Source: Lachnospiraceae bacterium
GTDB lineage: Bacteria; Bacillota; Clostridia; Lachnospirales; Lachnospiraceae
Assembly: GCA_024682835.1 (NCBI GenBank)
Contig: JAIKYU010000096.1
Location: 3,101 to 67,100, forward strand
Direction: 5' to 3'
DNA: 64,000 nt
A program made the translations under genes and the position numbers. The notes beneath the pieces are model-generated. The model did no database searches, was not told the origin of the DNA, and saw only the letters and a list, made by a program, of their open reading frames with translations. Below, piece by piece: positions 1-17,758 of the stretch. Each line of letters opens with the position of its first letter. The stretch's first letter is position 1.

Positions 1-146
1 ACCATCTCGTTTTTCTTATCCTCTTCCCGTCTGGCCTTCCACGCCTCGTAGCCTGCCGCACCAATCTTGGATGCTGCTTTGTAGAGCACATCCAGAATAT
101 TCAGCAGAAAATCCATGATATACTCCATCGGTGTCTTGTCACGCAT
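1..146 (-). CDS. Hypothetical protein, 5' part only (MRDKTPMEYIMDFLLNILDVLYKAASKIGAAGYEAWKARREEDKKNEM...)
   Basis: Read by hand, not in the ORF track; ATG at 146 preceded by a strong RBS (GAGGAGGAG); frame open to the window edge; same strand as the operon. Confidence 0.6.
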   Translation of the reverse strand, partial: MRDKTPMEYIMDFLLNILDVLYKAASKIGAAGYEAWKARREEDKKNEM

Positions 147-249
147 GACTCTTCTCCTCCTCTTTCCATTCACCTGCCGGTCACAGACACAACCCCTTCG
201 TATCTGATCAGTCGCTGCCGGTCACCCTCATCCATTCGAATCCGACCTG

Positions 250-549
250 TCACTGCCGGTTTCTGCCCGGCTGCTCCGCTTCCGCCGCTGTCTGTTTCAC
301 GCCGCCGAAGGAAAGCTCCACCGGATTCTTCACCACCCGTCTTTTTGCATGGGTCTCCGGTTCCGCGGTTCCGCTCTTTACCATCAGGTCGTCCAGCGAG
401 ATCTCCCGTACGTCAGATGCTTCCTTTGCCATTTCTTTCTTTTCCGCGGCTGAGCGTCCCGCCGTCGCCTGGAGCCTTCGCTTTAAATCGGTTTCCGCTG
501 AGAAATCAGCCCGTCTGATCACTTCCTCTGTATACTCCATTTCGGTCAC
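250..549 (-). CDS. Small charged hypothetical protein (99 aa)
   Basis: GTG start after a CAGGAGGG RBS; in operon context; no family recognised. Confidence 0.6.
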   Translation of the reverse strand: MTEMEYTEEVIRRADFSAETDLKRRLQATAGRSAAEKKEMAKEASDVREISLDDLMVKSGTAEPETHAKRRVVKNPVELSFGGVKQTAAEAEQPGRNRQ

Positions 550-630
550 CCTGTCCCTCCTGATCGATTGATCGTGTTCCGTCGTTCTGTATGATTATAT
601 GCGGCAGTGAGCAAAAAACCACGGAAACGA

Positions 631-3126
631 TCAGGAATCCTCGTTCGTCTCTTCCCCGTTGCCGCTTTGGATGTCATCCTCAGGTTTTGACGACGCAAAC
701 GGATCATCGTGATTGTCCGCAAGCGGATCCTTCTTCAGCTCCTCAAACGGATCCTTCTTCAGCTCCTCAAGCGGATCCTTCTTCAGATCGGCAAGCGGAT
801 CCTTTTTCATCTCTTCAAGCGGATCCTTCTTCAGCTCCTCAAGCGGATCCTTTTTCATCTCTTCAAGCGGATCCTTTTTCATCTCTTCAAGCGGATCCTT
901 TTTCATCTCTTCAAGCGGATCCTTTTTCATCTCTTCAAGCGGATCCTTTTTCATCTCTTCAAGTGGATCCTTTTTCATCTCTTCAAGCGGATCTCTCCTC
1001 AGCTCCTCAAGCGGATCCTTCTTCAGATCGGCAAGCGGATCCTGTCCGTCCAGAATATCGTGCATGGACAGATCGCCATCATCGAAGTCGCCATCGTTGA
1101 TGCTGCCGTCAACAAAGTCGCCCACGAGACCATCCCCGTTCAAATCCATTCCGGTAGAGCTCTCCGCCGCAAACTGTGCCATCTCATCAAGCTGCGACGA
1201 AAGCTGCTTCTCGTAAGCCTCCCGTTCCTTTCGTTCCTGCTCGTCCCGCTGACCGATCCAGACATACGGGTCCTGCTGGCTGCTGCCGGCATTGAGGAAG
1301 CCGTAATACGGCGTATCGAGGCCGCCGCCGGCGCCGGGCTCCCCATGGGTGTGCGGAGAAGCTGTTCCCGTAAAGGCCTGACTGCTCTCATCCGTCTCCT
1401 CATCGAAGAGACTCTTTCCTCCCACATCGAAGATGGTTTCAAATCCGTCATCCTCCGTTTCCCTGTGGGAGAGCAGATCCGACATCGCCTCATTCCGTTT
1501 CGGAGTGACCTGCGTATTTGTCGGCTTTCCTTCGTCGTTTTTGGTTCCCGTAAACTGGGTTCCTGTCTGCGGCGTGACAGAGCCCGGCTCGGTTTTGCTG
1601 CCGTTAAACTGCACATTTTCGGGTCCGTTTCCGGCATTCTTGCTGCCGAAGGCATCACCCACGCCGGGGGTGGGATTGCCGCCGCTCATCAGTCCCTTGT
1701 CCTTCAGATATCCCGTCACGGAGTCCACGCCCTTGTCAAAGACATAACCGGCAACTTTTTTCACCGGATAGGCGGCGATTTTCATGATTGACGTGGTGAT
1801 GGTCGCCCCCTGGGTCATCATGATGCCTTCCCGCCTTCCTGCTTCTGCGCTCAGAATTCCCGTCACCACGGGCCCCACCTGTGTGATGGCATAAGCGCCC
1901 GCAAGCGTAAAGGCCATCCTGGTGATATAATCCACTGCCGGCGTCGTTCCCTCCCCGAAAAATGCAATTTTACCCGAAAAAACCAGTCCGATCACGCTCA
2001 GGTAGACATTCATTCCCACAACGGTTCCGTAACCGGAAAACAGCCGTCCGAGGAACAGCTCCTGCCATTTTTTAAAGCGTTCGCCGTCGTCCATCGGCAT
2101 GGTCGCCGCAAAAAACGGTTCCACCAACAGCAGAAGAAGCGAATCAAAGATCCTCGCGATCATGCTGACCGCCATAATTCCCAGCAGATAGATGTAAAGA
2201 ATCGCCCCGCCGATGAGCAGGAGGTAGTCCATTCTCCGGATATCAAAGGTCTTCAGCACCTCGTAGAGGAGTGTCCGCTTCTTGTGATTGTAGATGCCGC
2301 TGTTTACGGAATCCCCCCGGTAGTAGGTCAGCCGGTATTTGTCCTCCAGGCCGAAATCGGCCACCTGCGATGCCTTTGACTTGTCTGCCTTGGAAAGCGC
2401 CGCCGACCGTGTCGAGGAGTTGTAATACACCGCATCGGCGAAGTCCTGTTCCCTGACCGCGTCCAGTGTGGACATCGTGAACAGGATATCCGACACCGCC
2501 GACTGATGCGGGTTGGTGGCAATGACAACGGCCTTCATCACCGCATCCCCCAGGGCGACCATAAACAATGCCATGACCGGAATGAGGATGAATCGAAGGA
2601 GCGCCTGTGCCGTCATGCGCATCACCTTGCCGACAGGTCGTCCTTTTTTGTCGCCCAGGCTGATATCGCCCACGGATTTGACGGTGGCGATGACCGCAAC
2701 CAGGAAACACAGTGCAAAACTCGCCAGAATCATTCCAAGCATGGCCTGCCGGATCACGTCCGACTTCACCAGTGCAAGGAGGAGGGAGCCCTGCCGTTCC
2801 ATTTTGCCCCCGTTCTGCACGTAGACGGGATCGATGCCCGCAAACATCCTGAAGGTCCCCTCCACCGCATCCAGCGCCCAGAGGACCACCCTTGAAACCT
2901 GAAACAGTTTGTCATAGATGAAGTTTTCAAAAAGCGTCTTAACCAGCTCCACCTGAATTGACAGGGCCGCTTCCAGAATCGGGAGCAGGATGTTCTCAAA
3001 CAAAAGCTTCATGATCTCGGACATGATGCTCTGGATTTTATTAAAGACAGGCGAAAGCGCGTGATCATACACCCAGTTGATCGCGTCCTGAAGCCAGCCC
3101 AGTTGAACGTAGGTCATCCCGTTCAT
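631..3126 (-). CDS. VirB6/TrbL-like polytopic membrane protein, paralog 1, with long acidic repeat tail
   Basis: Several hydrophobic segments; shares P[ML]DDGxxFKxWxE[LM]F with the two ORFs at 8206-11693; same operon as VirB4/VirD4. The VirB6 label rests on topology and context. Confidence 0.7.
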   Translation of the reverse strand: MNGMTYVQLGWLQDAINWVYDHALSPVFNKIQSIMSEIMKLLFENILLPILEAALSIQVELVKTLFENFIYDKLFQVSRVVLWALDAVEGTFRMFAGIDPVYVQNGGKMERQGSLLLALVKSDVIRQAMLGMILASFALCFLVAVIATVKSVGDISLGDKKGRPVGKVMRMTAQALLRFILIPVMALFMVALGDAVMKAVVIATNPHQSAVSDILFTMSTLDAVREQDFADAVYYNSSTRSAALSKADKSKASQVADFGLEDKYRLTYYRGDSVNSGIYNHKKRTLLYEVLKTFDIRRMDYLLLIGGAILYIYLLGIMAVSMIARIFDSLLLLLVEPFFAATMPMDDGERFKKWQELFLGRLFSGYGTVVGMNVYLSVIGLVFSGKIAFFGEGTTPAVDYITRMAFTLAGAYAITQVGPVVTGILSAEAGRREGIMMTQGATITTSIMKIAAYPVKKVAGYVFDKGVDSVTGYLKDKGLMSGGNPTPGVGDAFGSKNAGNGPENVQFNGSKTEPGSVTPQTGTQFTGTKNDEGKPTNTQVTPKRNEAMSDLLSHRETEDDGFETIFDVGGKSLFDEETDESSQAFTGTASPHTHGEPGAGGGLDTPYYGFLNAGSSQQDPYVWIGQRDEQERKEREAYEKQLSSQLDEMAQFAAESSTGMDLNGDGLVGDFVDGSINDGDFDDGDLSMHDILDGQDPLADLKKDPLEELRRDPLEEMKKDPLEEMKKDPLEEMKKDPLEEMKKDPLEEMKKDPLEEMKKDPLEELKKDPLEEMKKDPLADLKKDPLEELKKDPFEELKKDPLADNHDDPFASSKPEDDIQSGNGEETNEDS
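697..1041 (-). repeat. In-frame 24-bp tandem repeat, 15 DP[LF]-initiated units (consensus peptide DPLEEMKK)
   Basis: GGATC recurs every 24 nt from about 701 to 1041; AAGCGGATCCTTTTTCATCTCTTC is identical five times over 841-960 and once at 793-816. Confidence 0.97.
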
Positions 3127-3144
3127 GCAAATCCCATCCCGTCC

Positions 3145-4299
3145 CTATCGAACCCGTATCCTTTGTCCGGCCGTGAACACCAGCGCAGCCGCCGCAAGCA
3201 GCAGAACCGCCGCACAGATCCCCACAAGCTTCCAGGGAATCTCCCCGCGCCGTTCGATGACAAAACTATAAAACCGCATATTGCCTGTTGCATCGGATAC
3301 CGTGATATAGTAATGCCCGGCGGCAGCCAGCACGTGCGTGGGCGAAACGGCAGGCTGTCCGTTGTACAGGATCTCCACCTGTGCATCCTTCTCCGACACA
3401 TCAAAGGCCACCTCGCCGGTGAACATCCCGTTATGGATCTCCCCGTCCCACTTAATCGACGGCGGTGTCGTGTCCCGGACAAAGGTCTCCGAAAAGTCTT
3501 CGGGAAGACCGGTGATCCTGCTTTTGGGCCGGAAGCTCACTTCATAGAGTCCGTCCTGTATAAGCTCAAGGTATTTCCCGTCCTTCACCTCCACCGGCCG
3601 GTGATCCACTAAGACAGATGCGACCTCATAACTCTCCGGCGCCCACAGAAAGGATTCTGTCACGGGAATCTGCGTGCTGACGATCCGGAAGGTGCCCGAG
3701 ATATAGCTGCGCTGCTCCGCCTGGTCTCCATGGGCGATAAAGGCGTACTGTCCGGTCTCGCGAAAGAAATAATGCCCCTCCTCATCACAGGAGGCGGTCA
3801 CATCCTCACCGTCCCTTGTCACGGCAAAGATCGACATGCCGCCCTCCGGCATCAGCGCCACCGCATGATCCGCCCAGCTGCCCATCGGCGTCGACAGGCA
3901 AAGGGCGCTGCCGGTCGACAGGATATAGCGGTACAGGCCGCTTCCCCTGTCAAAACCAGTCTGAAACCCCGCAAGGGGCATGACCCTGTGATCCGAGTCC
4001 TCCACGAAGCGGTCCAGGATTTCATCGGACGGAAGCATCTCCCGGATCAGATTTCTGGCGTCCTCATCCTCAATCCCGTCATAGATGGAACCGGCGGGAT
4101 TGCTGCCGATGGTGTAGGGCGCATCCCGATCGATGTCCTCCTGCATCTCATCCAGCAGCTGCTGCTTCTCCTGCTCCGTCATGCCCTCCGGAAACTCATC
4201 CTCCTCCGCATAAACGGGAACAGACAGCCATGCGGTCACAAGCAGCACTGCTGCCAGACAGAGCCCGGTTTTTCCGACGCTTCCTGCCATCTTCCGCAC
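3145..4299 (-). CDS. Surface protein with signal peptide, Ig-like modules and C-terminal TM anchor (paralog of 11765-13726)
   Basis: N-terminal signal (..PVYA/EE); RDTTPP...VSDATGN Ig-like motif; C-terminal TM followed by QRIRVR. Confidence 0.75.
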   Translation of the reverse strand: MRKMAGSVGKTGLCLAAVLLVTAWLSVPVYAEEDEFPEGMTEQEKQQLLDEMQEDIDRDAPYTIGSNPAGSIYDGIEDEDARNLIREMLPSDEILDRFVEDSDHRVMPLAGFQTGFDRGSGLYRYILSTGSALCLSTPMGSWADHAVALMPEGGMSIFAVTRDGEDVTASCDEEGHYFFRETGQYAFIAHGDQAEQRSYISGTFRIVSTQIPVTESFLWAPESYEVASVLVDHRPVEVKDGKYLELIQDGLYEVSFRPKSRITGLPEDFSETFVRDTTPPSIKWDGEIHNGMFTGEVAFDVSEKDAQVEILYNGQPAVSPTHVLAAAGHYYITVSDATGNMRFYSFVIERRGEIPWKLVGICAAVLLLAAAALVFTAGQRIRVR

Positions 4300-4311
4300 A
4301 CGGCAAGGCGC

Positions 4312-4617
4312 TTAACGCCCCTTGCCGCCGATCTGTGCATGCGGCTGCATCTGAGGTTCCTGCATGACCTGTCTGGCCACCGCGCGAGCCTGACGAACAC
4401 GCTCCTGATGCCTGGCCTCCTCCTTGGCGACAAGCTGCTCAAAGGTGATGATCCGGACCCCGGGTCTTGCTTCCTCACTCTGCGCGGTGTCGCCGCCGAT
4501 CTTCAGGCGCTGCGCCGGCTTAAAGCCGTTCTGCTTTCTTCGATCCCGCTCCTGTTCAAGCACGGAGAGACGTTTTGCCCAGATCGCCTTGTTTTTTTCG
4601 CTGTCAAAGTATGCCAT
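4312..4617 (-). CDS. Small soluble charged hypothetical protein (101 aa)
   Basis: AGAGGTGG RBS and ATG; 12 and 21 nt gaps to neighbours. Confidence 0.75.
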   Translation of the reverse strand: MAYFDSEKNKAIWAKRLSVLEQERDRRKQNGFKPAQRLKIGGDTAQSEEARPGVRIITFEQLVAKEEARHQERVRQARAVARQVMQEPQMQPHAQIGGKGR

Positions 4618-4638
4618 ATCCCACCTCTTTTCGAATCC

Positions 4639-5469
4639 TTACTCCATGCCGGACAATACGGCATTCAGGAGCGTTGCCTGCGCGGCCTGTCTGCCGGAAA
4701 AAACCGCCACATAATGCTCCTTCGGACCGCCGGCGATCTCCTGCATCTGCAGTGCATTCGGGAAGCTCCTTACCAGCGAGATGGCGTCCCGCTCGGAAAA
4801 GATGCCCATATTGATCGCCCGGTCGCGGATATCCTCGCCGAGAGCGATGGCATCCGTATAGGTGCGCGGAGTGATGAAGCTGTAGTTGTCCGTCTTTTCC
4901 GCCGTCACCTGTACGGTATCCATGACGCCGACGGAATAGCCGGTCATCAGCGCCAGGGAGTCCGTGTAATCATGCAGCATCGTCACCAGGAACAGACCGC
5001 ATCGGCTGTATTCATCCGAGACGGCATAGCCCGTGAGATTCCGTTCGGAGGAAATCCTTCCGAAGGCCACATCCGCCGCACCGGTGTCAAGCATCGTCAG
5101 CGCCTCATTCACAGTGGACGTCTCAATGAGTTTCAGCTCCAGTCCCTCCGTTTCGGCCAGCGCGGCAGCAATTGAGGGTTCTGTTCCGGCAAGCTTTCCC
5201 GTGTCATCATGATAGGCGTAGCGGTCGTCTCCGAAAACCACCGCTGCCGTCAGCACGCCCGGCGTCACCAGCCTGACCTCTCTGCTTTTTCCTTTCCCGA
5301 TCGTTGCAACCGCTATCAACAGAATGATCAGAATGACCAGAACGAGTGCAATAACCGGCAAAACCCAGGGACGACCGCCAAGGAGACCGCCAGATTTCAG
5401 TTTGTCCGTAAGACCGGCAAGCAGACCGCCCGGACCCTTTTTTTCACCGTTTTTATTCTCTTCCGCCAT
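4639..5469 (-). CDS. Family 3 (polar amino acid) substrate-binding-like protein with N-terminal TM anchor
   Basis: G..Y.Y.D..G.L.G.E...A.ALA..EGL.L...L.TG.ADV...RISSER...SDEY pattern; single N-terminal TM and no lipobox. Confidence 0.75.
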   Translation of the reverse strand: MAEENKNGEKKGPGGLLAGLTDKLKSGGLLGGRPWVLPVIALVLVILIILLIAVATIGKGKSREVRLVTPGVLTAAVVFGDDRYAYHDDTGKLAGTEPSIAAALAETEGLELKLIETSTVNEALTMLDTGAADVAFGRISSERNLTGYAVSDEYSRCGLFLVTMLHDYTDSLALMTGYSVGVMDTVQVTAEKTDNYSFITPRTYTDAIALGEDIRDRAINMGIFSERDAISLVRSFPNALQMQEIAGGPKEHYVAVFSGRQAAQATLLNAVLSGME

Positions 5470-5484
5470 GATACTTTACCCCTT

Positions 5485-8202
5485 TCACATGGTGAACAAC
5501 GCTTCTATTCCGTCGCCCGCCACAATATTCACGTTGGTACGCTCGCTGGGCGAGGTGATGACAAAGGCCCGTCCGCGTCCGTTGTTGATGATGTCATCCT
5601 GTTCGCTTTCATTGATGGCGCCGGCATTCTCATAAAGCTTCACCAGATCGGTCATATCGTTGGGCGCCAGCGGGAAGATGAAGCTGTACTGGCTCGCGTT
5701 GATGATGGCCGTGGATTTGCGTGCCAGCTCCTCGGTGCCCACAAAATCCTTGATATTCTGCGTGATGACGATCTGCATACCGTTGTATTTCCGGATGCGC
5801 TTGGCCAGCTGGAACATGAAATCCAGCGCGATCGGGAATTTCTCGTCAATAAAGACATGCGCCTCATCGATGACGACGACGATCTTGCGGTTGGCGCCGT
5901 AGGCCATGTTGTATTCCCGGTTTTTGATGACCTCATTGTCAAGCCACTTCAGCACCAGCAGCATCTGCGCATTGGCCACTGTCCCGTTCTTGTTGGCAAG
6001 AAGAGACTGGAAATCGAAAACCACGAAGTTTTCATCGGTCGTGATGGACGCCGGTCCGTTCCAGAGCTGTGAATCTCTGCCGCCGGAGGCAAATTTGCTG
6101 ATGTAATTGGTCAGCACGCGCAGGTTGTTCTTGGAATAATCCCCCTTGGTCATCTGATAATCGTTCAGGATCTTGTCATACAGGTCGTCAAAGGTGGGAT
6201 AATCCTCCGCGGTGAGCTTTGACAGATCGGTGTACTCGTCGATCCCCTTTTCCTCGTACATCTGCGCCGTGACATTGTTCAACTGCTCCAGCGCGTCATT
6301 GCTGATCCCGGGCAGAATCTGCCGGTAAAACTCCTCCAGAAACTGCAGGTGAGTGGAGAAGCTCACCGCGCTCTCATTACCAAGGTTTCCGCTGTCCTCC
6401 CCGTTTTCCGTGTCATCGGAAAGGGAGGTGATGATGTGGAACGGGTTGAGGCGCCCCTGCGTGGCACTGCCCACATCGATCACCTTGCCGTGAAGTCCCT
6501 TGGCCATTTTCGTGTACTCGTTTTCCGGATCCAGAATAAAGATCTTGGAGTTTTCCGCGGCCAGCTGTGCCAGAATGGACTTGGTGGCATAGGATTTACC
6601 GGATCCGGATTTACCGATGATGACCGTATTGGAATTGACACGCTCGCTGTCTCTCTTAAAGAAGTCGACAAACACCGGCACACCGGCGGAATTGCCGATG
6701 AAAAGTCCGTTCTTGTCGTTCAGGCTCTTGTAAACAAAAGGAAAAGCCGCCGCAACGGAACCGGAATGGATGCCGCGCTCATACTTTTCGAAGGCATCAA
6801 AGCCGCCCATGGATCCTGACACATAGCCCTCGAATTCCTGCATGAACATATCCGTCACCTTGAAGCCCTCTTCGGCCAGCTGTCTGCGGACCTCCTTCTT
6901 CATGGCGTTCACCGCGCTGCTGTTCATCTTCACGCCGCTTTTGGTGGCCTCCGAGAGCTTGTAGTCATTCACCTGAATGTAGGTGTTCACATTGAAGAGC
7001 ATCTCGTTCTCGCCCTGCAGGAGTCTTAACACATTGGCCAGCGCCTGGATCTGGGTGTTGAGATCGATGATCTTGGAGGCGCGCCCGGTCTCGTTATGCT
7101 GGCTGCGCAGCTCCTCCAGGGACCGGTCAATCTGACGGATGGCCTTGCCGCGCTCCACCGGCGTCATGCGCATCACCACCTTGGTGCCGACATCATTGTA
7201 GAGCGTCGCCGCCCAGGCATTGCCCACCACCACCGGATAATCGCGCAACCTGAACTGATGAGTGATCAGATCATCATACCAGACCTGCCTCGTGGTGAAT
7301 TTGACCCTGTCCGGCAGAATCCAGTCCATGTACTGTTCGGGTGCCAGATGATCCGCCTCCCGCTCGTCAAAGGTCATGCCGTAGTTGTATTTGAGGAAGA
7401 CAGCCAGTTCCTTTCCGGTCAGCTGATGCGCTTCGATGTTGTTCTGATTAAACTGCGTGACACAGTTTTCCGCCTGGCTCTGAATCAGCGCGCGATCCTT
7501 GTCAATAAACACCACGTAATGGAAGGGTTGAAAGATCCTTTCCTTGAAGTTCATGGTCTTAAGCTGCTCGATGCGGTCCTGCACGATGCCCACCCGGACC
7601 GTCAGCTCATCATTGGTGAGCAGCCCGTTCATGTAGGCTTCCTCGAGGTCGGCAAGCTTGTCCTGTTCATTGGCGATACAGTCGTCATAGACCAGCGGCC
7701 TGTCCAGCTTGACTAACAGCACCTGCTCCCCATCCACCGCCGTCCGGAGGATTCCGCCGAACACACGGTCGATCATGCTGTTCTGCCGGTTTTCCGTGTA
7801 GAAGCGGAATTCCACGGAGGGAATATTGACCACCGTGGCGCAGTATTCTCCGCCGTATTCGATGAATTTCCCGTCAATTCCTGTGAAGGATGTGATGTCC
7901 TCCACGGAGAGCGCGTCCCCCTTTTTGCTCTCCCCGTCGCCCCGTTTTTTAAAGCTTCTGGGTCTGCCGAGATAGCGCAGGAAGTAGATGATCATCAGAT
8001 ATCCCTTGTCGTCGTCAATCGGGATGATCAGCGCCGCGGTAATCACCGCCACGATGATGGCCATAGCCCAGTGTCCGGGGACGTTGGCCATCGCCAGCAT
8101 CACCGTGAGTGCCGCGCCGATGGCTCCAACGAACACATCGACGACCTCCAGTCCCGGAAACAACTCCAGTCTGACTTTTGTTTTCTTAGGTATTACCCGC
8201 AT
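5485..8202 (-). CDS. virB4: VirB4-family T4SS ATPase with fused N-terminal PrgI/VirB3-like TM domain
   Basis: Walker A GKSGSGKS, Walker B VVVIDEAH, RIRKYNG and ITQNIKDF motifs; two N-terminal TM segments. Confidence 0.9.
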   Translation of the reverse strand: MRVIPKKTKVRLELFPGLEVVDVFVGAIGAALTVMLAMANVPGHWAMAIIVAVITAALIIPIDDDKGYLMIIYFLRYLGRPRSFKKRGDGESKKGDALSVEDITSFTGIDGKFIEYGGEYCATVVNIPSVEFRFYTENRQNSMIDRVFGGILRTAVDGEQVLLVKLDRPLVYDDCIANEQDKLADLEEAYMNGLLTNDELTVRVGIVQDRIEQLKTMNFKERIFQPFHYVVFIDKDRALIQSQAENCVTQFNQNNIEAHQLTGKELAVFLKYNYGMTFDEREADHLAPEQYMDWILPDRVKFTTRQVWYDDLITHQFRLRDYPVVVGNAWAATLYNDVGTKVVMRMTPVERGKAIRQIDRSLEELRSQHNETGRASKIIDLNTQIQALANVLRLLQGENEMLFNVNTYIQVNDYKLSEATKSGVKMNSSAVNAMKKEVRRQLAEEGFKVTDMFMQEFEGYVSGSMGGFDAFEKYERGIHSGSVAAAFPFVYKSLNDKNGLFIGNSAGVPVFVDFFKRDSERVNSNTVIIGKSGSGKSYATKSILAQLAAENSKIFILDPENEYTKMAKGLHGKVIDVGSATQGRLNPFHIITSLSDDTENGEDSGNLGNESAVSFSTHLQFLEEFYRQILPGISNDALEQLNNVTAQMYEEKGIDEYTDLSKLTAEDYPTFDDLYDKILNDYQMTKGDYSKNNLRVLTNYISKFASGGRDSQLWNGPASITTDENFVVFDFQSLLANKNGTVANAQMLLVLKWLDNEVIKNREYNMAYGANRKIVVVIDEAHVFIDEKFPIALDFMFQLAKRIRKYNGMQIVITQNIKDFVGTEELARKSTAIINASQYSFIFPLAPNDMTDLVKLYENAGAINESEQDDIINNGRGRAFVITSPSERTNVNIVAGDGIEALFTM

Positions 8203-8205
8203 ACG

Positions 8206-10230
8206 CTATTTCCTCGACTGATCGAACGGTTTGTTGCCGCCGTCCTGCTGCCCGCTGCCTGTCGCGTGATCATCCTTGAGCAAATCATCGCCGTCCAGAA
8301 GATCCTTCATGTCTAGCTTGCTGCTGTTTCTGCCGCCCGAAGTCAATATTGAAGACCTTGTGCTGCCTCCGGCGCCCTTTCCTGCGTTGCCGGCACCCGG
8401 TGCCAGCGACAGATCATCCAGATTCGGCTCCTCCATCAGGAGATCTTCCGCATCGTCGTCCCCGTCATTGATCCCGCCTCCGGTTGACATGGGAGGCGCC
8501 TGCTGACTCCCGGTGAAGGTGCCGCCGGTAGATTGTCTGGTGCTATCGGGAAGCGGCGTGTCTCCCGTCAGATCCGACGGGCCGATCTCTCCCGGTGTCA
8601 CGGACGACACGGAAGAATTGCTGTTCTGTGTCGTCCCCTGAGAAGTGGTGTTCGGGGTATCACTTTTCTTACCGGAGAACAGGTTGCTGTCGCCGGCTCC
8701 GCCGTCTGTTTTGCCGTCAGGTGTGATTGCGCTTCCGCCCTTGCCCGGGCCGCCTGAAAAGCTTTGGATAATACCGTCCGTCACCTTGTCGATTCCTTTT
8801 TTCATGCCAAACTTGGCAGGCGTGGCAGCAATGTCCATCATTTTGCCGGTAAACGCCATTCCCGCGGCGGACGACTCGCCTTCGATGCCGGCCGCTGCGC
8901 TGCTTAAGATGGAAGTGACAAGCGGGCCCGCCGAGACGATGGTTGCCGCGCCGCCGATCAGCAGGAGCATGCGCATGAGCATATCCGTCAGGATGTCTCC
9001 CATATCACCTCTCGAGGTAAAGGCGATCTTTCCGCTGAAGACCATCGAGCAGATCAGCAGGTAGATATACATCGCCACTACCATACCGTAGCCGGAGAAC
9101 AACCTGCCGAGGAACATCTCCTCCCACTTTTTGAAATGCTCTCCGTCGTCCAGCGGCATCGGAGCGATGAAGAACGGCTCGATAATCAGCAGGACGATCA
9201 CGTCAAAGAGGCGGCTGACAAACAGAAACAACGCGGTTCCAAGGACAAAGATAAAAAGAATCGCACCGCCGATGCCCACCAGATAGTCGAGCCTTCCCAC
9301 GTTGAAGGTAGCGTCCACATCCACGGAGCTCGCATAGTCCTTTTTCCCCGTGTAAAACGGTTCCCTGAACCTGTCCGTCAGGCCGTAGTCAGAGGCCTCG
9401 CCAGGATGCTTTTCCAGATAGGCCGAGCGGGTGCTGTAGTTGTAGCCTAAAAGCATATTGTCCCAGTCTCCGATCCGCGAACTGGCGGAGGCATACTGAT
9501 TTTTGAAGCTGAATTCCAGACGCTGTCCGCCTTTGTGTTTGACACCGTCCTTATCCACCGCGCCCAGCTCATCGTCCACCGCGTCCAGCGAGGAGATGAC
9601 AAACAGGGTCTGGGCAATGGTGACATTCTCCGACAGGGTCATGGCGTTGGTGACGGCGACCAGAACCGCATCTCCGAGAACGATCATAAAAAGGCCAAGA
9701 AGCGGTGCCGCGACCATCCGAAGCATCGCCCTGGCCAGATTCCGCAGCACCTGTCCCACCGGCTGCGAATTCTGGCCGCCCATCTCACCGATGGAACGCA
9801 CCGTCGCGACGATGGCAAACAGGAAACAGAGGACAAAGGAAATCATGATGACGATGCCCATGGTCTTCGTGACGAAGGGTGTGCGTACCAGCACCGACAG
9901 AAGCGACCCGTGGGCGCCCGTGGTGGTGTCCGTCACCTCGGTTTTCCCAGCCAGCACGTCAAACATGCTCTGCATCATTTCCAGAATGAGCAGAAAACCT
10001 TTTTCAATCGCATACATAAAACGCCCGTAGATCCGCATTATGTATTTTCCCACCGTCTGCATAATCAGGGAAAACGCGGTCTCCAGGAGCGGTCCCAGAA
10101 TGGTGTTGAACAGCCATTTGAAGACGTCCGACAGGAGGTTGGACACAAAGGAAAAAATCGGATTGAGCACCTTGTCAAAGACGTAATTAATGGCGTCCTG
10201 AATCCAGCCCAGTTGTACGAAGGTCATCAT
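8206..10230 (-). CDS. VirB6/TrbL-like polytopic membrane protein, paralog 2, with S/T/G-rich acidic tail
   Basis: QLGWIQDAIN start matches paralog 1 (QLGWLQDAIN); PLDDGEHFKKWEEMFLGRLFSGYG; many TM segments. Confidence 0.7.
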   Translation of the reverse strand: MMTFVQLGWIQDAINYVFDKVLNPIFSFVSNLLSDVFKWLFNTILGPLLETAFSLIMQTVGKYIMRIYGRFMYAIEKGFLLILEMMQSMFDVLAGKTEVTDTTTGAHGSLLSVLVRTPFVTKTMGIVIMISFVLCFLFAIVATVRSIGEMGGQNSQPVGQVLRNLARAMLRMVAAPLLGLFMIVLGDAVLVAVTNAMTLSENVTIAQTLFVISSLDAVDDELGAVDKDGVKHKGGQRLEFSFKNQYASASSRIGDWDNMLLGYNYSTRSAYLEKHPGEASDYGLTDRFREPFYTGKKDYASSVDVDATFNVGRLDYLVGIGGAILFIFVLGTALFLFVSRLFDVIVLLIIEPFFIAPMPLDDGEHFKKWEEMFLGRLFSGYGMVVAMYIYLLICSMVFSGKIAFTSRGDMGDILTDMLMRMLLLIGGAATIVSAGPLVTSILSSAAAGIEGESSAAGMAFTGKMMDIAATPAKFGMKKGIDKVTDGIIQSFSGGPGKGGSAITPDGKTDGGAGDSNLFSGKKSDTPNTTSQGTTQNSNSSVSSVTPGEIGPSDLTGDTPLPDSTRQSTGGTFTGSQQAPPMSTGGGINDGDDDAEDLLMEEPNLDDLSLAPGAGNAGKGAGGSTRSSILTSGGRNSSKLDMKDLLDGDDLLKDDHATGSGQQDGGNKPFDQSRK

Positions 10231-11693
10231 TTCGAGCCTCCTTTTGCGGACTTCATCAGACCGGACAGGACATCCGCTCCCTTCTGGACACCCTTGCTGA
10301 TTCCGCTGGTTGCGGCACCAAGGCCGGCACTCACACCCTTATCCACCACGCCGCTGGACATGCTGAGAAAACGCGAGACCTCAGGATTGATCAGATCCAG
10401 CATGAGTTTCTGACTCTTATACACCGCGAAGCCGCCGGCAGCAATAAAAAACAGCCGGAAAATGTATTCCGTCGCACTGACCGGAGTCACATCGTAGCCC
10501 TTGCTCGCCGAGGCAAGCAACGCCCGGGCCTGGGCCAGAACACCGGCTTCAAAGCCCAGATCCAGCGAGGAACTGGTCACCACGTAAGGCAAAAGCACCA
10601 GATAGGTCTTCATGGCGATGATCGGTCCAAAAACGCTGATGGTAAAGCCGACAAACATCTCCTTCCAGCGCTTGAATTTTGCCCCGTCGTCCAGCGGCAT
10701 CATGGCGACAAAATAGGGACTCACCACAAAGAGAATGAGCAGCATGAATACGCGCACCATACACTCGATGATGAGTTTGAGATAGATAAACAGTACCAGC
10801 AACACCTCAAAGAACGCATAGAGCCAGTTGATGTTTCCCACATCGATATCCTCGAGAGCCGCCGCCTCATTCTGGAAATGCTGACCGCTCAGATAGTAGG
10901 ATTCATTGGATTTGTCCCGAAGCGCATCCTTGACGATGAGATAAAAGATCAGATCGCAGGCGCGCGTGTCCTCGTTCGGTTTTGCCTGCCGCTTCGCCGC
11001 GATGGCTTTTTCAATCTGAGACTGCTTGGAACCTCTTCTGGGGTTTTCCGAATAGTTGGACAGTGCCTCGCTCACCAGACTTGCCGCATCCCTGTTGCTG
11101 CTCCCGTAGATGTTGTTGGGCATATACTTGGCCACGGAAGTGATGGTCACCCCCGCCAGCTTTACCGTAAAGATGCAGACCAGCGGGATCAGGGCAAAGG
11201 TGAGACAGGCCTTTGCCGTCTGTCTCAGCACATGACTCACCGGCTTCTTCATCTCTCCGATGCCCTCGCCCATGGACCGGATGACCGCAAAGATCGTGAT
11301 GATAAAACACAGGACAAAGGCTCCCGCGGTCATGCCAAGCACAGCATTGACCACCACGTCGCTCTGCATCAGCACATCGACCAGGGAGGAATTCTTCGTC
11401 ACATCCACATAGCCCGAGGTCGCCTCCATTTTTCCGGTAACGGTATTCTGCATATAAACACCGACCGTGCAGGAAAACACATCAAAAATCCGTTCAATGA
11501 TGAGCATGATCTTGAGCAGCAGGACGAAAATGGAGAAGAGGATGTGACCCAGTGCCGCCATGATCATGCCCGAAACCAGATCCCATAAAAAGTCGAACGC
11601 AATCATGATGACCGGCATCAGAAATTTGTTGAAAATATCCGCCAGCAGGTCCTCCAGCACCGATATAAAACTCAAGGAAACCGGAATGTTCAT
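10227..11693 (-). CDS. VirB6/TrbL-like polytopic membrane protein, paralog 3, short tail
   Basis: PLDDGAKFKRWKEMF motif; same TM layout; 4-nt ATGA overlap with paralog 2. Confidence 0.7.
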   Translation of the reverse strand: MNIPVSLSFISVLEDLLADIFNKFLMPVIMIAFDFLWDLVSGMIMAALGHILFSIFVLLLKIMLIIERIFDVFSCTVGVYMQNTVTGKMEATSGYVDVTKNSSLVDVLMQSDVVVNAVLGMTAGAFVLCFIITIFAVIRSMGEGIGEMKKPVSHVLRQTAKACLTFALIPLVCIFTVKLAGVTITSVAKYMPNNIYGSSNRDAASLVSEALSNYSENPRRGSKQSQIEKAIAAKRQAKPNEDTRACDLIFYLIVKDALRDKSNESYYLSGQHFQNEAAALEDIDVGNINWLYAFFEVLLVLFIYLKLIIECMVRVFMLLILFVVSPYFVAMMPLDDGAKFKRWKEMFVGFTISVFGPIIAMKTYLVLLPYVVTSSSLDLGFEAGVLAQARALLASASKGYDVTPVSATEYIFRLFFIAAGGFAVYKSQKLMLDLINPEVSRFLSMSSGVVDKGVSAGLGAATSGISKGVQKGADVLSGLMKSAKGGSK

Positions 11694-11764
11694 GTGTCCT
11701 CCTGTTCCTGTAGGTCAAAGGCTATATGATGATATATGCATCAGACCGGAAACATCCACGCGAC

Positions 11765-13726
11765 TCACCGCACCCGCACGGTGGTCTTGACCCTTCTGAG
11801 GAAGATGATCAGGCCGCCGATCAGCGCAATCACCATCACGATGGCCAGGATGGCAAACACATTGATCCGGTACTGCACGGCAAAATCATAACTGCTCTCA
11901 TTGCCTGCCTGATCCGCCACCACAAGATGGTACCGTCCCGCCTGGGTGACCAGCGTGATCAGCTGTCCGTCACTGATCACCTCATTGCCCCGTGTCAGTC
12001 TGGCGGACGCGATGTCATCGGACAGATAGTCAATATGCGCCGCGTTGGGCTCCGTGCGGATTCGCGCACGCGGAGGAACGGTATCCCGGACAAACGAGAC
12101 ACCTGTGGTTCCGGCATCGCCTTCAAAATCAATCTCCCATCTGCCGTCTTTGGATATGCTGGCCACCGTCCCGGAAATCAGCGCCTTGGTCGTGACGTCT
12201 TCATCCTCATACCGCACAGCAGCGATTTTCATGCTCTCCGGTGCATTGACAACACCCATATCCGGCACGCGTCCGTTTACAATACGGAAACGCATCATCG
12301 GCCGGTTTTGACGGTAAAAACTCTCATAATCCAGATTGTCGATCACCGGAATCAGAATGTAATCTCCGATTCCTTCAATATAGTCGCCGGCATTGTACTC
12401 GATCTTCTCCCCGCTGCGGTACAGCTCGTAACGCAGCTTCTCGGCAGGCAGGAAGACGACGGAGCTGTTTGTGACCATTCCGTCCGGAATACTGGACGAA
12501 AAGCTGTCTCCGGTCAGAAGCGAGATGCGGTAATATCCCGTTCCGGAATCGTACTCCGTCGACAGACCGTTTGCCGCGGACACAAACCCCACGGGTTCCT
12601 CTTTCTTTTCGGGTTCCGGTTCAGGCTCCGGCTCAGGCTCAGGCTCCTTCGTCTCCTCCGGATTGCCCGGGAGAAGCACCTGTTCCTCCTGTGCCAGATC
12701 GGCGAAAGACTGCAGCTCTGAAGGCTCCGGCGCCACAAGCGGCGTGCCGTCCAGTCCCGCCGTATACTGAATACGGAAGATGAAGCGTGCCCGCTCAATG
12801 GTCTGCTGCCATCCGGGAAGACTCTCCGAACCGTCCTGCGGCACATAGAACTGAACGACATAGGTACCCTCGTTCTTGATCTGTTCCTTGTTGGTAAAGC
12901 CGACTGCCTTGCCGTCTCTGGTCATGCGCACGGAGACGCCGCCCGGCACGTCAAAGATCGCCGGACGGTTGGAAATCGAGCCGTTGGCGATGTTGGTATA
13001 GATCGCGTAGAGGTCGTTGAAGCGCTCCTCATAGATCTGATAGTTGTCATGATAGGATTCGGAAAGCGTGACCGTATTGATGATGGGTCCCACCGGATCC
13101 GATTCCAGCGCGGCAATGTCCGGCGTCAGCGCCTGCGTCCACTGATCGATGGTGCTGCCCAGCGCCTGTTGCGTGATGGCATTGCCGGAAACATCCTTGC
13201 CGCCTCCGTTGACATACGAGTAATAGGCATTTCCGGATACGTCCACACTCTGTCTGAGCTGCTGCTGGACCTGCTGCTGGATGTTGATCCGCTGCTGCTG
13301 CTGGATGTTATACAGCGGGTAGTAGGTGATGACCCGTCTTCCGTTGACGGTGGTGTTGCCCCCGCCGCCTGTCGTGGTTCCGTAGGACGCACCACCGTTT
13401 AAGAAGCTCCCGGTCCCCATGGAGCTTGTCAGTCCGCCATTTCCGTATACACCGTTTAAGTACCCGCCGGTCTGTGTGGCGATCTGCCCCAGAGACGTGG
13501 TCTGGCCGCTGCTGAGCGCTCCGCTCGTCTGCGAAAGCCCGTTGGCGATCTGTCCAAGGGTCGCCGCCTGATTGTTTCCTGTGCTCTGCGTCCCGCCAAG
13601 AATCCCGGTCAGCGTGCTGTTGAGGCCGCCTCCCGTGATCGTGGCCTGTGCCGTTTCCCGGCACAGCGTTGTGCATGTGATTCCGCACAACAGAGCAATC
13701 GCCAGTTTTCCGGATAATTTCTTCAT
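11765..13726 (-). CDS. Large surface protein: signal peptide, G/T/N/Q-rich region, Ig-like modules, PE linker, C-terminal TM
   Basis: Signal peptide (..TAQA/T); RDTVPP...VADQAGN motif; EPEPEPEPEPEPE linker; TM followed by RRVKTTVRVR. Confidence 0.8.
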   Translation of the reverse strand: MKKLSGKLAIALLCGITCTTLCRETAQATITGGGLNSTLTGILGGTQSTGNNQAATLGQIANGLSQTSGALSSGQTTSLGQIATQTGGYLNGVYGNGGLTSSMGTGSFLNGGASYGTTTGGGGNTTVNGRRVITYYPLYNIQQQQRINIQQQVQQQLRQSVDVSGNAYYSYVNGGGKDVSGNAITQQALGSTIDQWTQALTPDIAALESDPVGPIINTVTLSESYHDNYQIYEERFNDLYAIYTNIANGSISNRPAIFDVPGGVSVRMTRDGKAVGFTNKEQIKNEGTYVVQFYVPQDGSESLPGWQQTIERARFIFRIQYTAGLDGTPLVAPEPSELQSFADLAQEEQVLLPGNPEETKEPEPEPEPEPEPEKKEEPVGFVSAANGLSTEYDSGTGYYRISLLTGDSFSSSIPDGMVTNSSVVFLPAEKLRYELYRSGEKIEYNAGDYIEGIGDYILIPVIDNLDYESFYRQNRPMMRFRIVNGRVPDMGVVNAPESMKIAAVRYEDEDVTTKALISGTVASISKDGRWEIDFEGDAGTTGVSFVRDTVPPRARIRTEPNAAHIDYLSDDIASARLTRGNEVISDGQLITLVTQAGRYHLVVADQAGNESSYDFAVQYRINVFAILAIVMVIALIGGLIIFLRRVKTTVRVR

Positions 13727-13743
13727 CTTCCCGTTCCTGTTCC

Positions 13744-16113: not shown

Positions 16114-17284
16114 CCAGAACCCCCCTTTCTCTTTCTCTTTTGTACAACAGAGCCATCAGCAGGGCCAATACCAATCCGACCGTTCCCGCAAGAAACGTCT
16201 GAAAGATGTCCGTCGCCCTGCCAAGGCTTTGTCTTTCAGGATGCAGAAACCAGATGAACCACTGCACAACGGACGGAAGATTAAATCCGGCATGGACAAA
16301 AATCCCGTAGAGGATATTCCCCTCCCACATGGAGATCCGTCCGATGATCCATCCCATCACAAACGCGTAGAGAAACCATACGCTGCTTCCGTGCATCACG
16401 GAAAAAATGATCGTCGTCACGATCAATGCCGGCAGATCGGCCCATCTGCGAAGCAGACGGTTCAGCATATATCCCCTGAAAATGATCTCCTCCACCAGAG
16501 GCGTCAGCACCGCACTTTCCACAATCGTGAGCAGGATGTCGTAGCGCTGGTAGATCCGGCTCACTTTTTCCTCATAGATCGCAAACACCCACACCTTGGG
16601 AATGAAGGTGAGCAGGGCCGAGAGAAACAGTGCGGCTCCGGTTCCGAACACCAGACCCATGCCGATTTTTTTCCAGGATATCGCACTGCGGTACAATGCG
16701 GCGTCCTCAAAAAAGGTGCTGCCGCTCTTCTTTGACTTCCGGTGCAGCCTTCTGAGTGTAAGAACCACGCCGATCGCCACCAGCAGATTGGAGCGGTCCG
16801 CGAGATACTCCGCGAAGCTGTAACGCATCATGCCGGACAGAGGATAGCCGACAATGATACAGGCTAACGTGATCAGAATGTAGGAAAACATCGGTCCGGC
16901 CGCATACAGAAGGTCGCGTATGCAATAGTAAACCATCTGCTGAACCGAGAGTGGCTCCGTCGACGTGCGGAAGCTCACCGGATCCTCATCGTCGATACCG
17001 CGCCGCCTGCGTTTGCCTGCGCGTTTCTTCTCTGAGGCGAAATCCCGCTCCCTGCTTTCACGGTCAGCATCCGGCGCCTCTTCTGTCGACCCGCCGTCTG
17101 CCGCGTCGCTTTCGTCTTTGCTGTCTGCTCCCTGTGCCGCGTTCTTCCCGATGTCCGCGCTGCCCGCATCCTGACTTACGGCTTCCTTTTCCGCGTCCTG
17201 TCTGCCGCCTGATCCCTCCTGTCCCTCCTCATGAAACAGATAGGAGAGCCAGCCGAAGGGATGGAAATCCTTCTTTCCGCTCAA
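16106..17284 (-). CDS. CPBP family (CAAX/Abi) intramembrane glutamic protease with disordered N-terminus
   Basis: EEIIFRG, FSVMH and HAGFN motifs; several TM segments; 8-nt overlap with the virD4 start. Confidence 0.88.
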   Translation of the reverse strand: MSGKKDFHPFGWLSYLFHEEGQEGSGGRQDAEKEAVSQDAGSADIGKNAAQGADSKDESDAADGGSTEEAPDADRESRERDFASEKKRAGKRRRRGIDDEDPVSFRTSTEPLSVQQMVYYCIRDLLYAAGPMFSYILITLACIIVGYPLSGMMRYSFAEYLADRSNLLVAIGVVLTLRRLHRKSKKSGSTFFEDAALYRSAISWKKIGMGLVFGTGAALFLSALLTFIPKVWVFAIYEEKVSRIYQRYDILLTIVESAVLTPLVEEIIFRGYMLNRLLRRWADLPALIVTTIIFSVMHGSSVWFLYAFVMGWIIGRISMWEGNILYGIFVHAGFNLPSVVQWFIWFLHPERQSLGRATDIFQTFLAGTVGLVLALLMALLYKRERERGVLDG

Positions 17285-17305
17285 AGCAACCGCTCCGGTC
17301 GAAGG

Positions 17306-17599
17306 TTACTCAATGGGCAGATATCCGGAAAGCCCGGTCACATCCAGCAGATCCCTGAGGGAATCACTGACATTACGCATCACAAAGCTTCCTTTCGCCG
17401 CACGCATCTTTTTCTGCACGACGGTAAGGGCCCGCAGACCGGCAGAGCTCAGATACCCGGTATCGGTCATATCAGCCACAAACATCGATCCCTCTCCCGC
17501 CGCAGTCGCCTCCGCGACAAGCGCAAGCATGGCCTCCTGCGTGGCAGCCGCGTTGTTGCCGTCGATGCGTTCCGGTGCTCTGTAAATCGTTTCCTGCAT
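17306..17599 (-). CDS. STAS-domain anti-sigma-factor antagonist
   Basis: DMTDTGYLSSAGLRAL motif with the phosphorylatable Ser; DLLDVTGL C-terminus; 97 aa. Confidence 0.88.
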   Translation of the reverse strand: MQETIYRAPERIDGNNAAATQEAMLALVAEATAAGEGSMFVADMTDTGYLSSAGLRALTVVQKKMRAAKGSFVMRNVSDSLRDLLDVTGLSGYLPIE

Positions 17600-17758
17600 C
17601 TCTTTCTCCTTTTCCGTTCCCTAAAGAACCCATAATCCATTCTATTTTAATAGATAATTTTATAAATAACAATAGAAATTTTTCATCCGCTTGTGGTATG
17701 ATGGATTCCGCGCTACTGTTCAATCAGAAACCGGACGCAGTCATGTATTCACAGGGAG

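Follow-up and report, generated by a model that had tools for sequence, protein, structure and literature searches.

Nearly all known functions of type IV secretion systems (T4SSs) in Gram-positive bacteria are DNA transfer, and the existence of dedicated effector translocators is a long-standing open question (2025 review, PMC12857230). Clusters of VirB4 and a type IV coupling protein without a neighbouring relaxase were described as "MOBless T4SS" by Guglielmini et al. 2011 (PMC3158045), who noted them outside Proteobacteria and proposed that they export proteins; this general idea has accordingly been known since 2011. The integrative and conjugative elements (ICEs) of Mollicutes conjugate, need a surface lipoprotein and use a DDE transposase, and their relaxase is still unidentified (PMC6030558). 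The locus described here resembles both. It is located at the left end of a stretch of 64,000 nucleotides from a rumen Lachnospiraceae bacterium (GenBank assembly GCA_024682835.1, contig JAIKYU010000096.1, positions 3,101 to 67,100), which is called the window in the following and begins 3100 bases into its contig (C148). With slightly more confidence than doubt we read it as a chromosomal, relaxase-less T4SS cassette, present in two complete copies in this genome, from a monoderm lineage related to the Mollicutes ICEs, which serves as a non-conjugative contact or translocation machine. As judged from its genes, it is a predicted functional, signal-gated and relaxase-less T4SS cassette, the cargo of which is at candidate level only.

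Twelve co-directional open reading frames (ORFs) on the minus strand occupy window positions 250-17599 with gaps from -8 to +81 nt (Table 1). They encode a STAS protein, a CPBP protease, a VirD4-type coupling protein, a VirB4 anchored by transmembrane (TM) helices, three paralogous polytopic proteins, two anchored Ig-like proteins, a solute-binding-protein (SBP)-like protein and two small charged proteins. The tight operon of VirD4, VirB4, three polytopic genes and interspersed accessory genes that a preliminary description had recognized by eye is thus borne out by ORF calls, Pfam and NCBIfam scans and AlphaFold2 (AF2) models. An exact-sequence look-up of the window VirB4 in public assemblies gave no match.

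The core of the machinery corresponds to the T4SS of the Mollicutes ICEs (ICEA of M. agalactiae and ICEB of M. bovis: CDS5 [VirD4], CDS15 to CDS17 and the lipoprotein CDS14). The VirB4 protein, which is also matched by the P-loop_TraG/DUF87 models of Pfam, fits the Mbov_0397 family of ICE conjugal transfer ATPases (NF045975) end to end, i.e. over model positions 5-884 of 894 and including its N-terminal TM hairpin, at a score of 552 that falls below the equivalog cut-off of 590. The three polytopic proteins all exceed the cut-offs of the MMCAP2_0566 (NF045848) and Mbov_0396 (NF045889) ICE families, and a pilin-like protein encoded elsewhere in the genome passes that of Mbov_0395, so that all three families CDS15/16/17 are represented. 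Both systems have a large surface lipoprotein alongside, and a relaxase has been identified in neither of them. In contrast to the Mollicutes, the host of the present cassette is walled, and the cassette adds a wall hydrolase, Ig-like proteins, a CPBP protease, an SBP-like protein and a sigma/partner-switching module. Its lipoprotein lacks detectable homology to CDS14, and neither the Mutator-like DDE transposase CDS22 nor the ParA-like CDSG was found in the scanned cassette and flank proteins, a scan that did not extend to terminal repeats.

Both ATPases retain intact Walker A and B motifs, which in VirB4 are GKSGSGKS at 530 and VVVIDE at 775. The VirD4 protein comprises N-terminal TM helices and an acidic C-terminal tail of ~130 aa; this tail (window 13744-14150) is D/E/G-rich, of low complexity and located past the conserved TraG-D_C domain. 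The PrgI-VirB4 fusion reported in the preliminary description is supported solely by the two TM helices and the family-wide architecture and was otherwise overstated: a VirB3-like part is visible only as the TM hairpin of VirB4, and no VirB8-like protein was recognized in the cassette. The polytopic proteins B6a, B6b and B6c are mutually paralogous (24-37% identity). Their earlier designation as VirB6-like holds for family and for position next to virB4, but not for the fold, which is not claimed here. A Foldseek search with the B6a model (5-7 TM helices, AF2 pLDDT 68) ranked TrwI/VirB6 of R388 first at a non-significant level (E ~1, probability 0.2), Pfam gave no TrbL/VirB6 match for the polytopic proteins, and a sequence search of B6a against the PDB yielded nothing useful. 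The tails of the three paralogs differ greatly in length (~50, ~200 and ~400 aa). The one of B6b (~200 aa) is disordered and G/S/T/D-rich, and the acidic one of B6c (~400 aa) contains a coding tandem repeat of 24 bp x 13.5 at positions 720-1043 (90% match, Tandem Repeats Finder) with KKDPLEE[ML] units.

Further described T4SSs share single traits with the cassette. Like the MOBless class, it combines VirB4 and a coupling protein without a neighbouring relaxase; that class is, however, a computational one without an experimentally studied Firmicute member, and neither the accessory set nor the regulatory wiring is described there (PMC3158045). The T4SS of Patescibacteria, the candidate phyla radiation (CPR), is likewise monoderm, chromosomal, related to MPF-FATA and mostly relaxase-less, has VirB2-like pilins and has been proposed to represent a non-conjugative co-option, but it is near-ubiquitous in its phylum, essential for epibiotic growth and devoid of VirB3-VirB4 fusions (PMC12102498). 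The present cassette is rare (~4% of Lachnospiraceae genomes), multi-copy in some genomes and carries a sigma/PP2C/STAS module. The "type IVC" T4SS of Streptococcus suis 89K (PMC3464263, PMC3132442; reviewed in PMC12857230) exemplifies a Gram-positive minimal set of VirB1/B4/B6/D4 with reported secretion of SspA-1, whereas 89K itself, a pathogenicity island that is transferable and encodes mobility functions of its own, has no accessory genes or regulation in common with the cassette. Finally, the non-conjugative chromosomal rvh T4SS of Rickettsiales (PMC2653234, PMC7648143) exhibits tandem paralogs at the VirB6 position with graded, long and repeat-rich C-terminal tails; as rvh belongs to diderms and to a different MPF class, the resemblance may be taken as an analogy only.

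The preliminary description had anticipated that the locus continues left of the first window base, which is the case. The 3100 bases in front of the window (C148:1-3100) encode the rest of a K/E-rich repeat protein of 535 aa, an extracytoplasmic function (ECF)-type sigma factor and the start of a lipoprotein gene, of which 373 codons are present before the contig ends. The orthologous lipoprotein of the closest relative (G128) has 1796 aa; its residues 1-397 match the fragment on C148 (59%), and its residues 904-1780 match an open-ended ORF of 905 aa at the start of contig C84 (62%). Because both fragments match the same ortholog, the locus almost certainly continues from C148 into C84 with ~500 codons missing between them. 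On C84 the lipoprotein is followed by a SpoIIE-family PP2C with a HAMP domain, a 267-aa protein, a 3D-domain protein, a four-TM protein and a HATPase_c_2 anti-sigma kinase, beyond which unrelated genes are located (MscS, hybrid kinases). Relatives of the 267-aa protein include one in Lachnospiraceae bacterium C1.1 with a weak match to the cell-wall-binding repeat Choline_bind_2, and repeats are also visible by eye. The 3D-domain wall hydrolase scores 60.9 bits on C84 and 58 bits beside the second copy, and it recurs in Butyrivibrio sp. WCD3002 and near most related loci; one distant version (G035) has Peptidase_M15_4 in its place. The hydrolase is hence missing, as previously stated, within the window but not beyond it, and its absence is an artefact of the window edge given the 3D-domain protein on the predicted continuation.

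A second complete and diverged copy of the cassette is present in the same genome, split over two contigs. C124 (18566-29779) harbors the 3D-domain protein, STAS, CPBP, an Ig-like protein, VirD4 (77% identical) and three polytopic proteins, and C85 (536-12182) harbors VirB4 (73-75%), the SBP-like protein, the 101-aa protein, an Ig-like protein, a lipoprotein of 1917 aa and a sigma factor. The left flank of this copy consists of PolC and polysaccharide-utilisation genes, i.e. it occupies another chromosomal site. Two or three cassette copies are also found in related species. The pilin-like gene (Mbov_0395 family, NF045849 50.2 vs 40 bits; PF18895) is located in neither copy but on contig C13. 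There (4838-12009) it follows a response regulator and another STAS/PP2C/HATPase_c_2 set, and the start of an insertion sequence (IS)-transposase-like gene precedes the contig end.

The structural conservation of the cassette extends far beyond this genome. A scan of species-representative genomes retrieved 56 loci with VirB4 at 41-91% identity, mostly from rumen and gut Lachnospiraceae, and other carriers comprise Catonella, Oribacterium, Hungatella effluvii, Enterocloster lavalensis, Oscillospiraceae and Acutalibacteraceae. Together with three distant versions (G035, G278, G487) and the closed genome C1.1 these make up the ~60 syntenic loci considered below, which stem from Lachnospirales, Oscillospirales and further Bacillota. 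Their gene order is near-invariant: (wall-binding, 3D hydrolase, four-TM), STAS, CPBP, VirD4, Ig-like, two polytopic proteins, VirB4, SBP-like, (STAS), 101-aa protein, Ig-like, pilin-like and giant surface protein, with PP2C, anti-sigma kinase and sigma factor near the cassette in related loci. The pilin-like protein is encoded in 31 related loci. In Butyrivibrio sp. WCD3002 the full set known from C148 and C84 is found on a single 478-kb contig. The cassette of Lachnospiraceae bacterium C1.1 lies on a closed 4.08-Mb chromosome. The distant versions (G035, 57% identity; G278 and G487, ~50%) are shorter, still recognisable and situated among housekeeping genes. In the band of ~50% VirB4 identity (G278:C1 and about ten other Lachnospiraceae) the open frames vary between ~1000 and 1600 aa, most of them exceeding 1270 aa, and the extra length of the G278 protein is a C-terminal extension without Pfam match. 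A record titled Succinatimonas sp. CAG:777 contains a Firmicute cassette together with an RNase J that is 57% identical to that of the window; this bin is probably mislabelled or mixed. Cultured carriers are Butyrivibrio sp. WCD3002, Lachnospiraceae bacterium AD3010 and C1.1, Hungatella effluvii DSM 24995 and Enterocloster lavalensis KCTC 15153. A literature search retrieved no published description of this cassette.

This conservation bears on the scenario of a decaying ICE remnant that has lost its relaxase and integrase. The absent mobility genes would agree with it, as would the IS-like fragment beside the pilin gene on C13. However, the genes are intact in both copies of this genome and in almost all of the ~60 loci, down to 41% VirB4 identity; the sole non-intact case seen is the virB4 of G487, which is broken by a single in-frame TAG. 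The non-T4SS accessory genes are conserved like the core, and paralogs have been kept in parallel in four species. We regard decay as scarcely credible and rejected it on the grounds that the cassette is intact and syntenic across the ~60 loci.

The search for mobility genes covered the window, its surroundings and the related loci. Pfam and NCBIfam scans revealed no relaxase, integrase, transposase or replication family in any window ORF, in agreement with what had been stated for the 17.6 kb of the operon. A protein-by-protein scan found no relaxase, integrase or transposase in the 3.1 kb to the left, on C84 or in the second copy (C124, C85), and the same holds true for the flanks of WCD3002 (~18 kb on each side), G035, G278 and G487. 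No recurrent relaxase, integrase or transposase is present across the ~60 syntenic loci. A tally of 99 flanking proteins comprised no relaxase, integrase or transposase among the listed families, which were the top 25 of 54, so that a singleton could be hidden among the rest. No integrase or recombinase was detected near the cassette in the tyrosine-recombinase search or the flank tallies, while serine recombinases and att repeats were not specifically searched. In the own genome, which is 98% complete, neither a MOBP (PF03432) nor a MOBT (PF02486) relaxase was found; MOBV, MOBF, MOBH and MOBC were not searched genome-wide. Its single MOBQ relaxase (PF03389) is located on C100, and all seven tyrosine recombinases are on non-cassette contigs. 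On C100 (42-2207) this MobA_MobL relaxase adjoins a tyrosine recombinase, and C80 encodes an ordinary distant VirB4 (27-30% identical to that of the window); both probably belong to a mobile element of the conventional kind that has nothing to do with the cassette. Four of ten carrier genomes lack a MOBP relaxase altogether; in the other six every MOBP match lies on a contig whose number differs from that expected for the cassette, the cassette contig being confirmed only for WCD3002 and H. effluvii. A comparison with 72,556 plasmids yielded no full-length VirB4 relative, and no match exceeded ~31% identity or covered 80% of the query.

The composition and divergence of the cassette are indicative of a long residence in its hosts. 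The cluster has a GC content of 0.556 compared with 0.563 in the rest of the window, in line with the host-like composition first noted by eye, and equals the host GC both here and in WCD3002. Across hosts the GC3 of VirB4 ranges from 0.27 to 0.81, and the GC of the locus follows. With regard to the congruence between VirB4 and its host, proposed earlier as a check, the identity of VirB4 tracks that of RNase J across 38 carrier genomes (Pearson 0.93, Spearman 0.80). In the VirB4 tree the two copies of the own genome fall into two clades (A and B), each of which also contains the same three related species. As both clades hold the same species, both copies must already have been present in the common ancestor of the four.

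Several observations nonetheless weigh against a non-conjugative machine. Patchy distribution and variable insertion sites had been named beforehand as signs against a chromosomal, repurposed apparatus, and both were found. Only 7 of the 88 species in the genus are carriers, as if the cassette were moving or often lost, and among 401 evenly sampled Lachnospiraceae genomes it is likewise patchy, being present in 18 (~4%) that represent 17 of 347 genera. The orthologous copy of the closest relative G128 (91% VirB4) is located in a different neighbourhood, and in that genome the site beside PaaI holds other genes. The core is closest to the transfer genes of Mollicutes ICEs, for which a relaxase has not been identified either, so DNA might be transferred here as well. 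Since those ICEs conjugate without an identified relaxase, the argument "no relaxase, hence no DNA" is weakened, and the absence of a relaxase is weaker evidence than the preliminary description had assumed (PMC6030558). A cryptic DNA-processing protein may be present among the unannotated 101-aa, 99-aa and K/E-rich proteins. The analysis revealed neither a substrate nor a secretion signal nor a toxin/immunity pair. Lastly, the ends of C148 and C84 do not overlap, and their join is drawn from the ortholog and not from overlapping sequence.

Ranked by RNase J identity, the five nearest relatives comprise three carriers of the cassette and two non-carriers, the latter being metagenome-assembled genomes with a completeness of 81% and 86%. 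A search for the empty site in the nearest relatives showed that G128 and G017 keep the order RNase J-U32-PaaI, after which each genome has different genes, and the search thus delimited neither a clean insertion boundary nor an att site. Because it is rare, patchy and located at different sites in close relatives, the cassette is an accessory island, long resident where present, and not a fixed trait of the lineage. A "core domesticated trait of the family" was rejected on account of the low prevalence. Thus, of the earlier notion of a repurposed conjugation core, the intact relaxase-less T4SS cassette with its own regulatory module stands, whereas the term domesticated does not.

The same data have to be read in the light of a machine that moves chromosomal DNA, possibly including itself, between related cells by means of an unrecognised relaxase of the cassette, a relaxase acting in trans or a relaxase-independent route like the chromosomal transfer of Mycoplasma. 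Such a device would account for the placement of the VirB4, polytopic and pilin-like proteins in the Mollicutes ICE families Mbov_0395/0396/0397, and it would fit that those ICEs depend on a surface lipoprotein (PMC6030558), of which the cassette has a giant one. The retained VirD4 belongs to a conjugative family (CD1115), the distribution is patchy with different sites in close relatives, clade B of the genome's relatives is sister to the copies of other Lachnospiraceae rather than to clade A, and one MOBQ relaxase is available elsewhere in the genome. On the other hand, the examined flanks contain no DDE transposase, ParA, integrase or relaxase family, and the host-matched GC together with a VirB4 divergence parallel to that of a housekeeping gene gives no sign of recent spread. 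Full-length relatives on plasmids were not found, and conjugative elements do not usually come with a partner-switching sigma module of their own. We consider DNA transfer rather unlikely on this evidence.

The accessory proteins provide a second view on the function of the cassette. The two Ig-like proteins of 653 and 384 aa share 26% identity across ~250 aa. The longer one has no sequence match in Pfam, NCBIfam or the PDB; the AF2 model of the shorter one (34-sequence alignment, pLDDT 83.8) predicts three Ig-like beta-sandwich domains. The Foldseek matches of this model are arrays of Ig domains and adhesins of bacteria, and none is a T4SS subunit. A comparison of 74 family members revealed a C-terminal module common to both Ig-like families, which consists of the motif "...G.Y.h.V.D.AGN....F.h.Y", a TM helix and a short basic tail [KR]x[VM][KR][VI][RVIL]-COOH. 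Such a module would be compatible with a role in docking or, alternatively, with sorting by the CPBP protease of the cassette. The protease has its catalytic motifs, an N-terminal region of ~110 aa that is disordered and an 8-nt gene overlap with the start of virD4, and it reaches only sub-threshold scores against the sorting protease families MrtJ/MrtS/MrtC. The SBP-like gene follows virB4 in 41 related loci, and no ABC permease or ATPase was found near it. The 101-aa protein is a specific marker of the cassette, with 242 representatives among 1.84 billion proteins. Neither it nor the 99-aa protein has known relatives in Pfam/NCBIfam, and the 101-aa family is also without a PDB relative. The two have a motif VRxI[ST][LF]xxL in common. 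Of 2718 ORF picks of the own genome only one contains it, as do 19 of 30 orthologs of the 101-aa protein, and it may have a role in docking or recognition.

The cassette could also be chiefly an assembly or adhesion apparatus. Its T4SS core would then serve to export the pilin-like protein or present it on the cell, and to keep the Ig-like proteins and the giant lipoprotein in place at the surface, so that the host attaches to plant fibre or to other cells; no cargo would be delivered. Two anchored Ig-like proteins and a surface protein of 1400-1900 aa are always part of the cassette, to which the pilin-like gene is added, the hosts are mostly rumen and gut fibre-associated Lachnospiraceae, and the giant protein of G278 contains InlB-type B-repeats. 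The Ig-like proteins and the lipoprotein bear Sec-type signal peptides, however, and therefore do not need a T4SS for their export, and VirD4 is kept with intact ATPase motifs in all 34 related loci that extend to its position, which argues for a cytoplasmic substrate. Mere adhesion is accordingly judged improbable. The retention of VirD4 also separates the cassette from DNA-uptake or DNA-release devices of the kind known from Helicobacter pylori (ComB) or from archaea (the Ced importer). Relaxase-less, VirB4-based DNA importers do exist, and the P-loop region shows a weak match to the NCBIfam model of CedD, but this match spans just ~65 residues around Walker A, the known importers are without VirD4, and the family scans found no ComEC-, DprA- or nuclease-like genes in the cassette. 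Uptake or release of DNA is a very improbable function.

The cassette is linked to regulatory genes of its own. A PP2C with a HAMP domain, a STAS protein with a conserved serine and a HATPase_c_2 kinase are encoded together with an ECF sigma factor, and the natural reading of this partner-switching set is that of a predicted signal-gated switch for the operon. The arrangement resembles the RsbU-RsbV-RsbW and SpoIIE-SpoIIAA-SpoIIAB modules, in which a PP2C (SpoIIE family), a STAS protein with conserved serine, a HATPase_c_2 kinase and a sigma factor are co-encoded. It differs from them in its position inside a secretion cassette and in its sigma factor, which is of the ECF type instead of sigma-B or sigma-F (PF04542/PF04545; TIGR02937 86 bits vs 42.9; regions 2 and 4 only; nearest to the BldN family); the interactions are predicted from the genes. 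A sporulation sigma-F module was rejected because of this ECF-type sigma factor.

The favoured non-conjugative contact or translocation machine might operate as follows. The membrane-bound PP2C with its HAMP domain would sense an envelope or contact signal and dephosphorylate the STAS protein, which would capture the HATPase_c_2 anti-sigma kinase and thereby release the ECF sigma factor of the cassette to switch on the operon. The 3D-domain hydrolase would open the wall. A minimal monoderm channel could be formed in the membrane by the TM-anchored VirB4, two or three polytopic proteins at the VirB6 position and the pilin-like protein, and the two tail-anchored Ig-like proteins together with the giant lipoprotein would span the wall and establish contact. 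The conserved C-termini of the Ig-like proteins, with their TM helix and basic tail, may be substrates of the CPBP protease. VirD4, whose retention argues for a cytoplasmic substrate, would feed that substrate into the channel. The favoured cargo is protein rather than DNA, possibly the soluble 101-aa, 99-aa or K/E-rich cassette proteins, delivered on contact; this is the weakest step of the scheme. In its most far-reaching form the proposal states that part of the Clostridia (Lachnospiraceae, Oscillospiraceae and relatives) has a T4SS dedicated to a non-conjugative, contact-dependent function, which is switched on by PP2C/STAS/anti-sigma-kinase/ECF-sigma, combines a core of the Mollicutes ICE type with a wall part of CPBP-processed Ig-like proteins and a giant lipoprotein, and delivers cassette-encoded soluble proteins into neighbours. 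We put this forward tentatively, as an unlikely though worthwhile conjecture.

The features of the operon are compiled in Table 1. To its right, beyond position 17600, ordinary housekeeping genes follow, namely PaaI-like, U32 peptidase, YceG, RNase J, DUF1292 and RuvX; the subsequent genes include a MiaB-like radical-SAM methylthiotransferase (UPF0004 and Radical_SAM domains), ThiI and a cysteine desulfurase. The sigma-70-like hexamers read in the region upstream of the operon (17600..17758) are consensus matches only. At the other end of the locus, ~12 kb past the cassette end on C84 (20104-28000), a type I CRISPR-Cas-like set is discernible by eye (a Cas3-like protein of 851 aa, followed by Cas5/7/8- and Cas1-like proteins).

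Table 1. Annotated features of the T4SS operon, from its upstream region to the left end of the window (window coordinates)
Feature	Position	Strand	Evidence and remarks
Presumed promoter region, AT-rich intergenic	17600..17758	-	Between divergent PaaI-like gene and first operon gene; ribosome-binding site GGAGAAAGAG before STAS start
STAS protein, 97 aa, anti-sigma-factor-antagonist type, SSAG serine motif	17306..17599	-	PF01740 41.5 bits; TIGR00377 47.8 bits, below 53.45 cut-off
CPBP (Rce1-like) intramembrane glutamic protease, 392 aa	16106..17284	-	PF02517 69.6 bits; EExxxR, FxxxH and HxxxN motifs visible
VirD4-type coupling protein, 789 aa	13744..16113	-	PF02534 168.9, PF12696 109.8, PF10412 91.2 bits; NF045973 (CD1115 family) 281.5 vs 250 cut-off
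Ig-like protein, 653 aa: signal peptide, extracellular Ig-like region, C-terminal TM, basic tail ending VRVR	11765..13726	-	Long paralog of 384-aa protein
Polytopic protein B6a, 488 aa, Mbov_0396/MMCAP2_0566 family, VirB6-like by position	10227..11693	-	NF045848 170.9 vs 90; NF045889 82.1 vs 70
Polytopic protein B6b, 674 aa, Mbov_0396/MMCAP2_0566 family	8206..10230	-	NF045848 156.9, NF045889 80.7 bits; 37% identical to B6c
VirB4-type ATPase, 905 aa, N-terminal TM hairpin (VirB3-like position)	5485..8202	-	PF19044 67.9, PF01935 45.9 bits; NF045975 552 bits
TM-anchored family-3 SBP-like protein, 276 aa	4639..5469	-	PF00497 (SBP_bac_3) 31.2 vs 26.4 bits; weak PDB matches to amino-acid-binding proteins
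Small charged cytoplasmic protein, 101 aa	4312..4617	-	Invariant N-terminal MAYFDSxKNxAxW and internal VRxIxhxxL (alignment of 31 orthologs)
Ig-like protein, 384 aa: signal peptide, three Ig-like domains (predicted), C-terminal TM, tail ending RVR	3145..4299	-	AF2 pLDDT 83.8; Foldseek
Polytopic protein B6c, 831 aa, Mbov_0396/MMCAP2_0566 family	631..3126	-	NF045848 150.1, NF045889 81.5 bits
Small charged protein, 99 aa, VRxIS/TLxxL motif in common with 101-aa protein	250..549	-	ORF call
K/E-rich repeat protein, first 57 codons of 535 aa	1..173	-	ORF runs past window base 1

The cassette makes the question of Gram-positive effector translocators testable, as it is conserved and intact, lacks recognisable genes for DNA processing or integration, has its own signalling switch and is present in cultured carriers. 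If it moved DNA instead, it would represent relaxase-independent conjugation, or conjugation with a novel relaxase, in walled Firmicutes and in relation to the ICE machinery of Mycoplasma, which would also be of interest. If contact-dependent protein delivery holds true, Gram-positive commensals would have in this cassette their first bona fide effector-translocator T4SS family.

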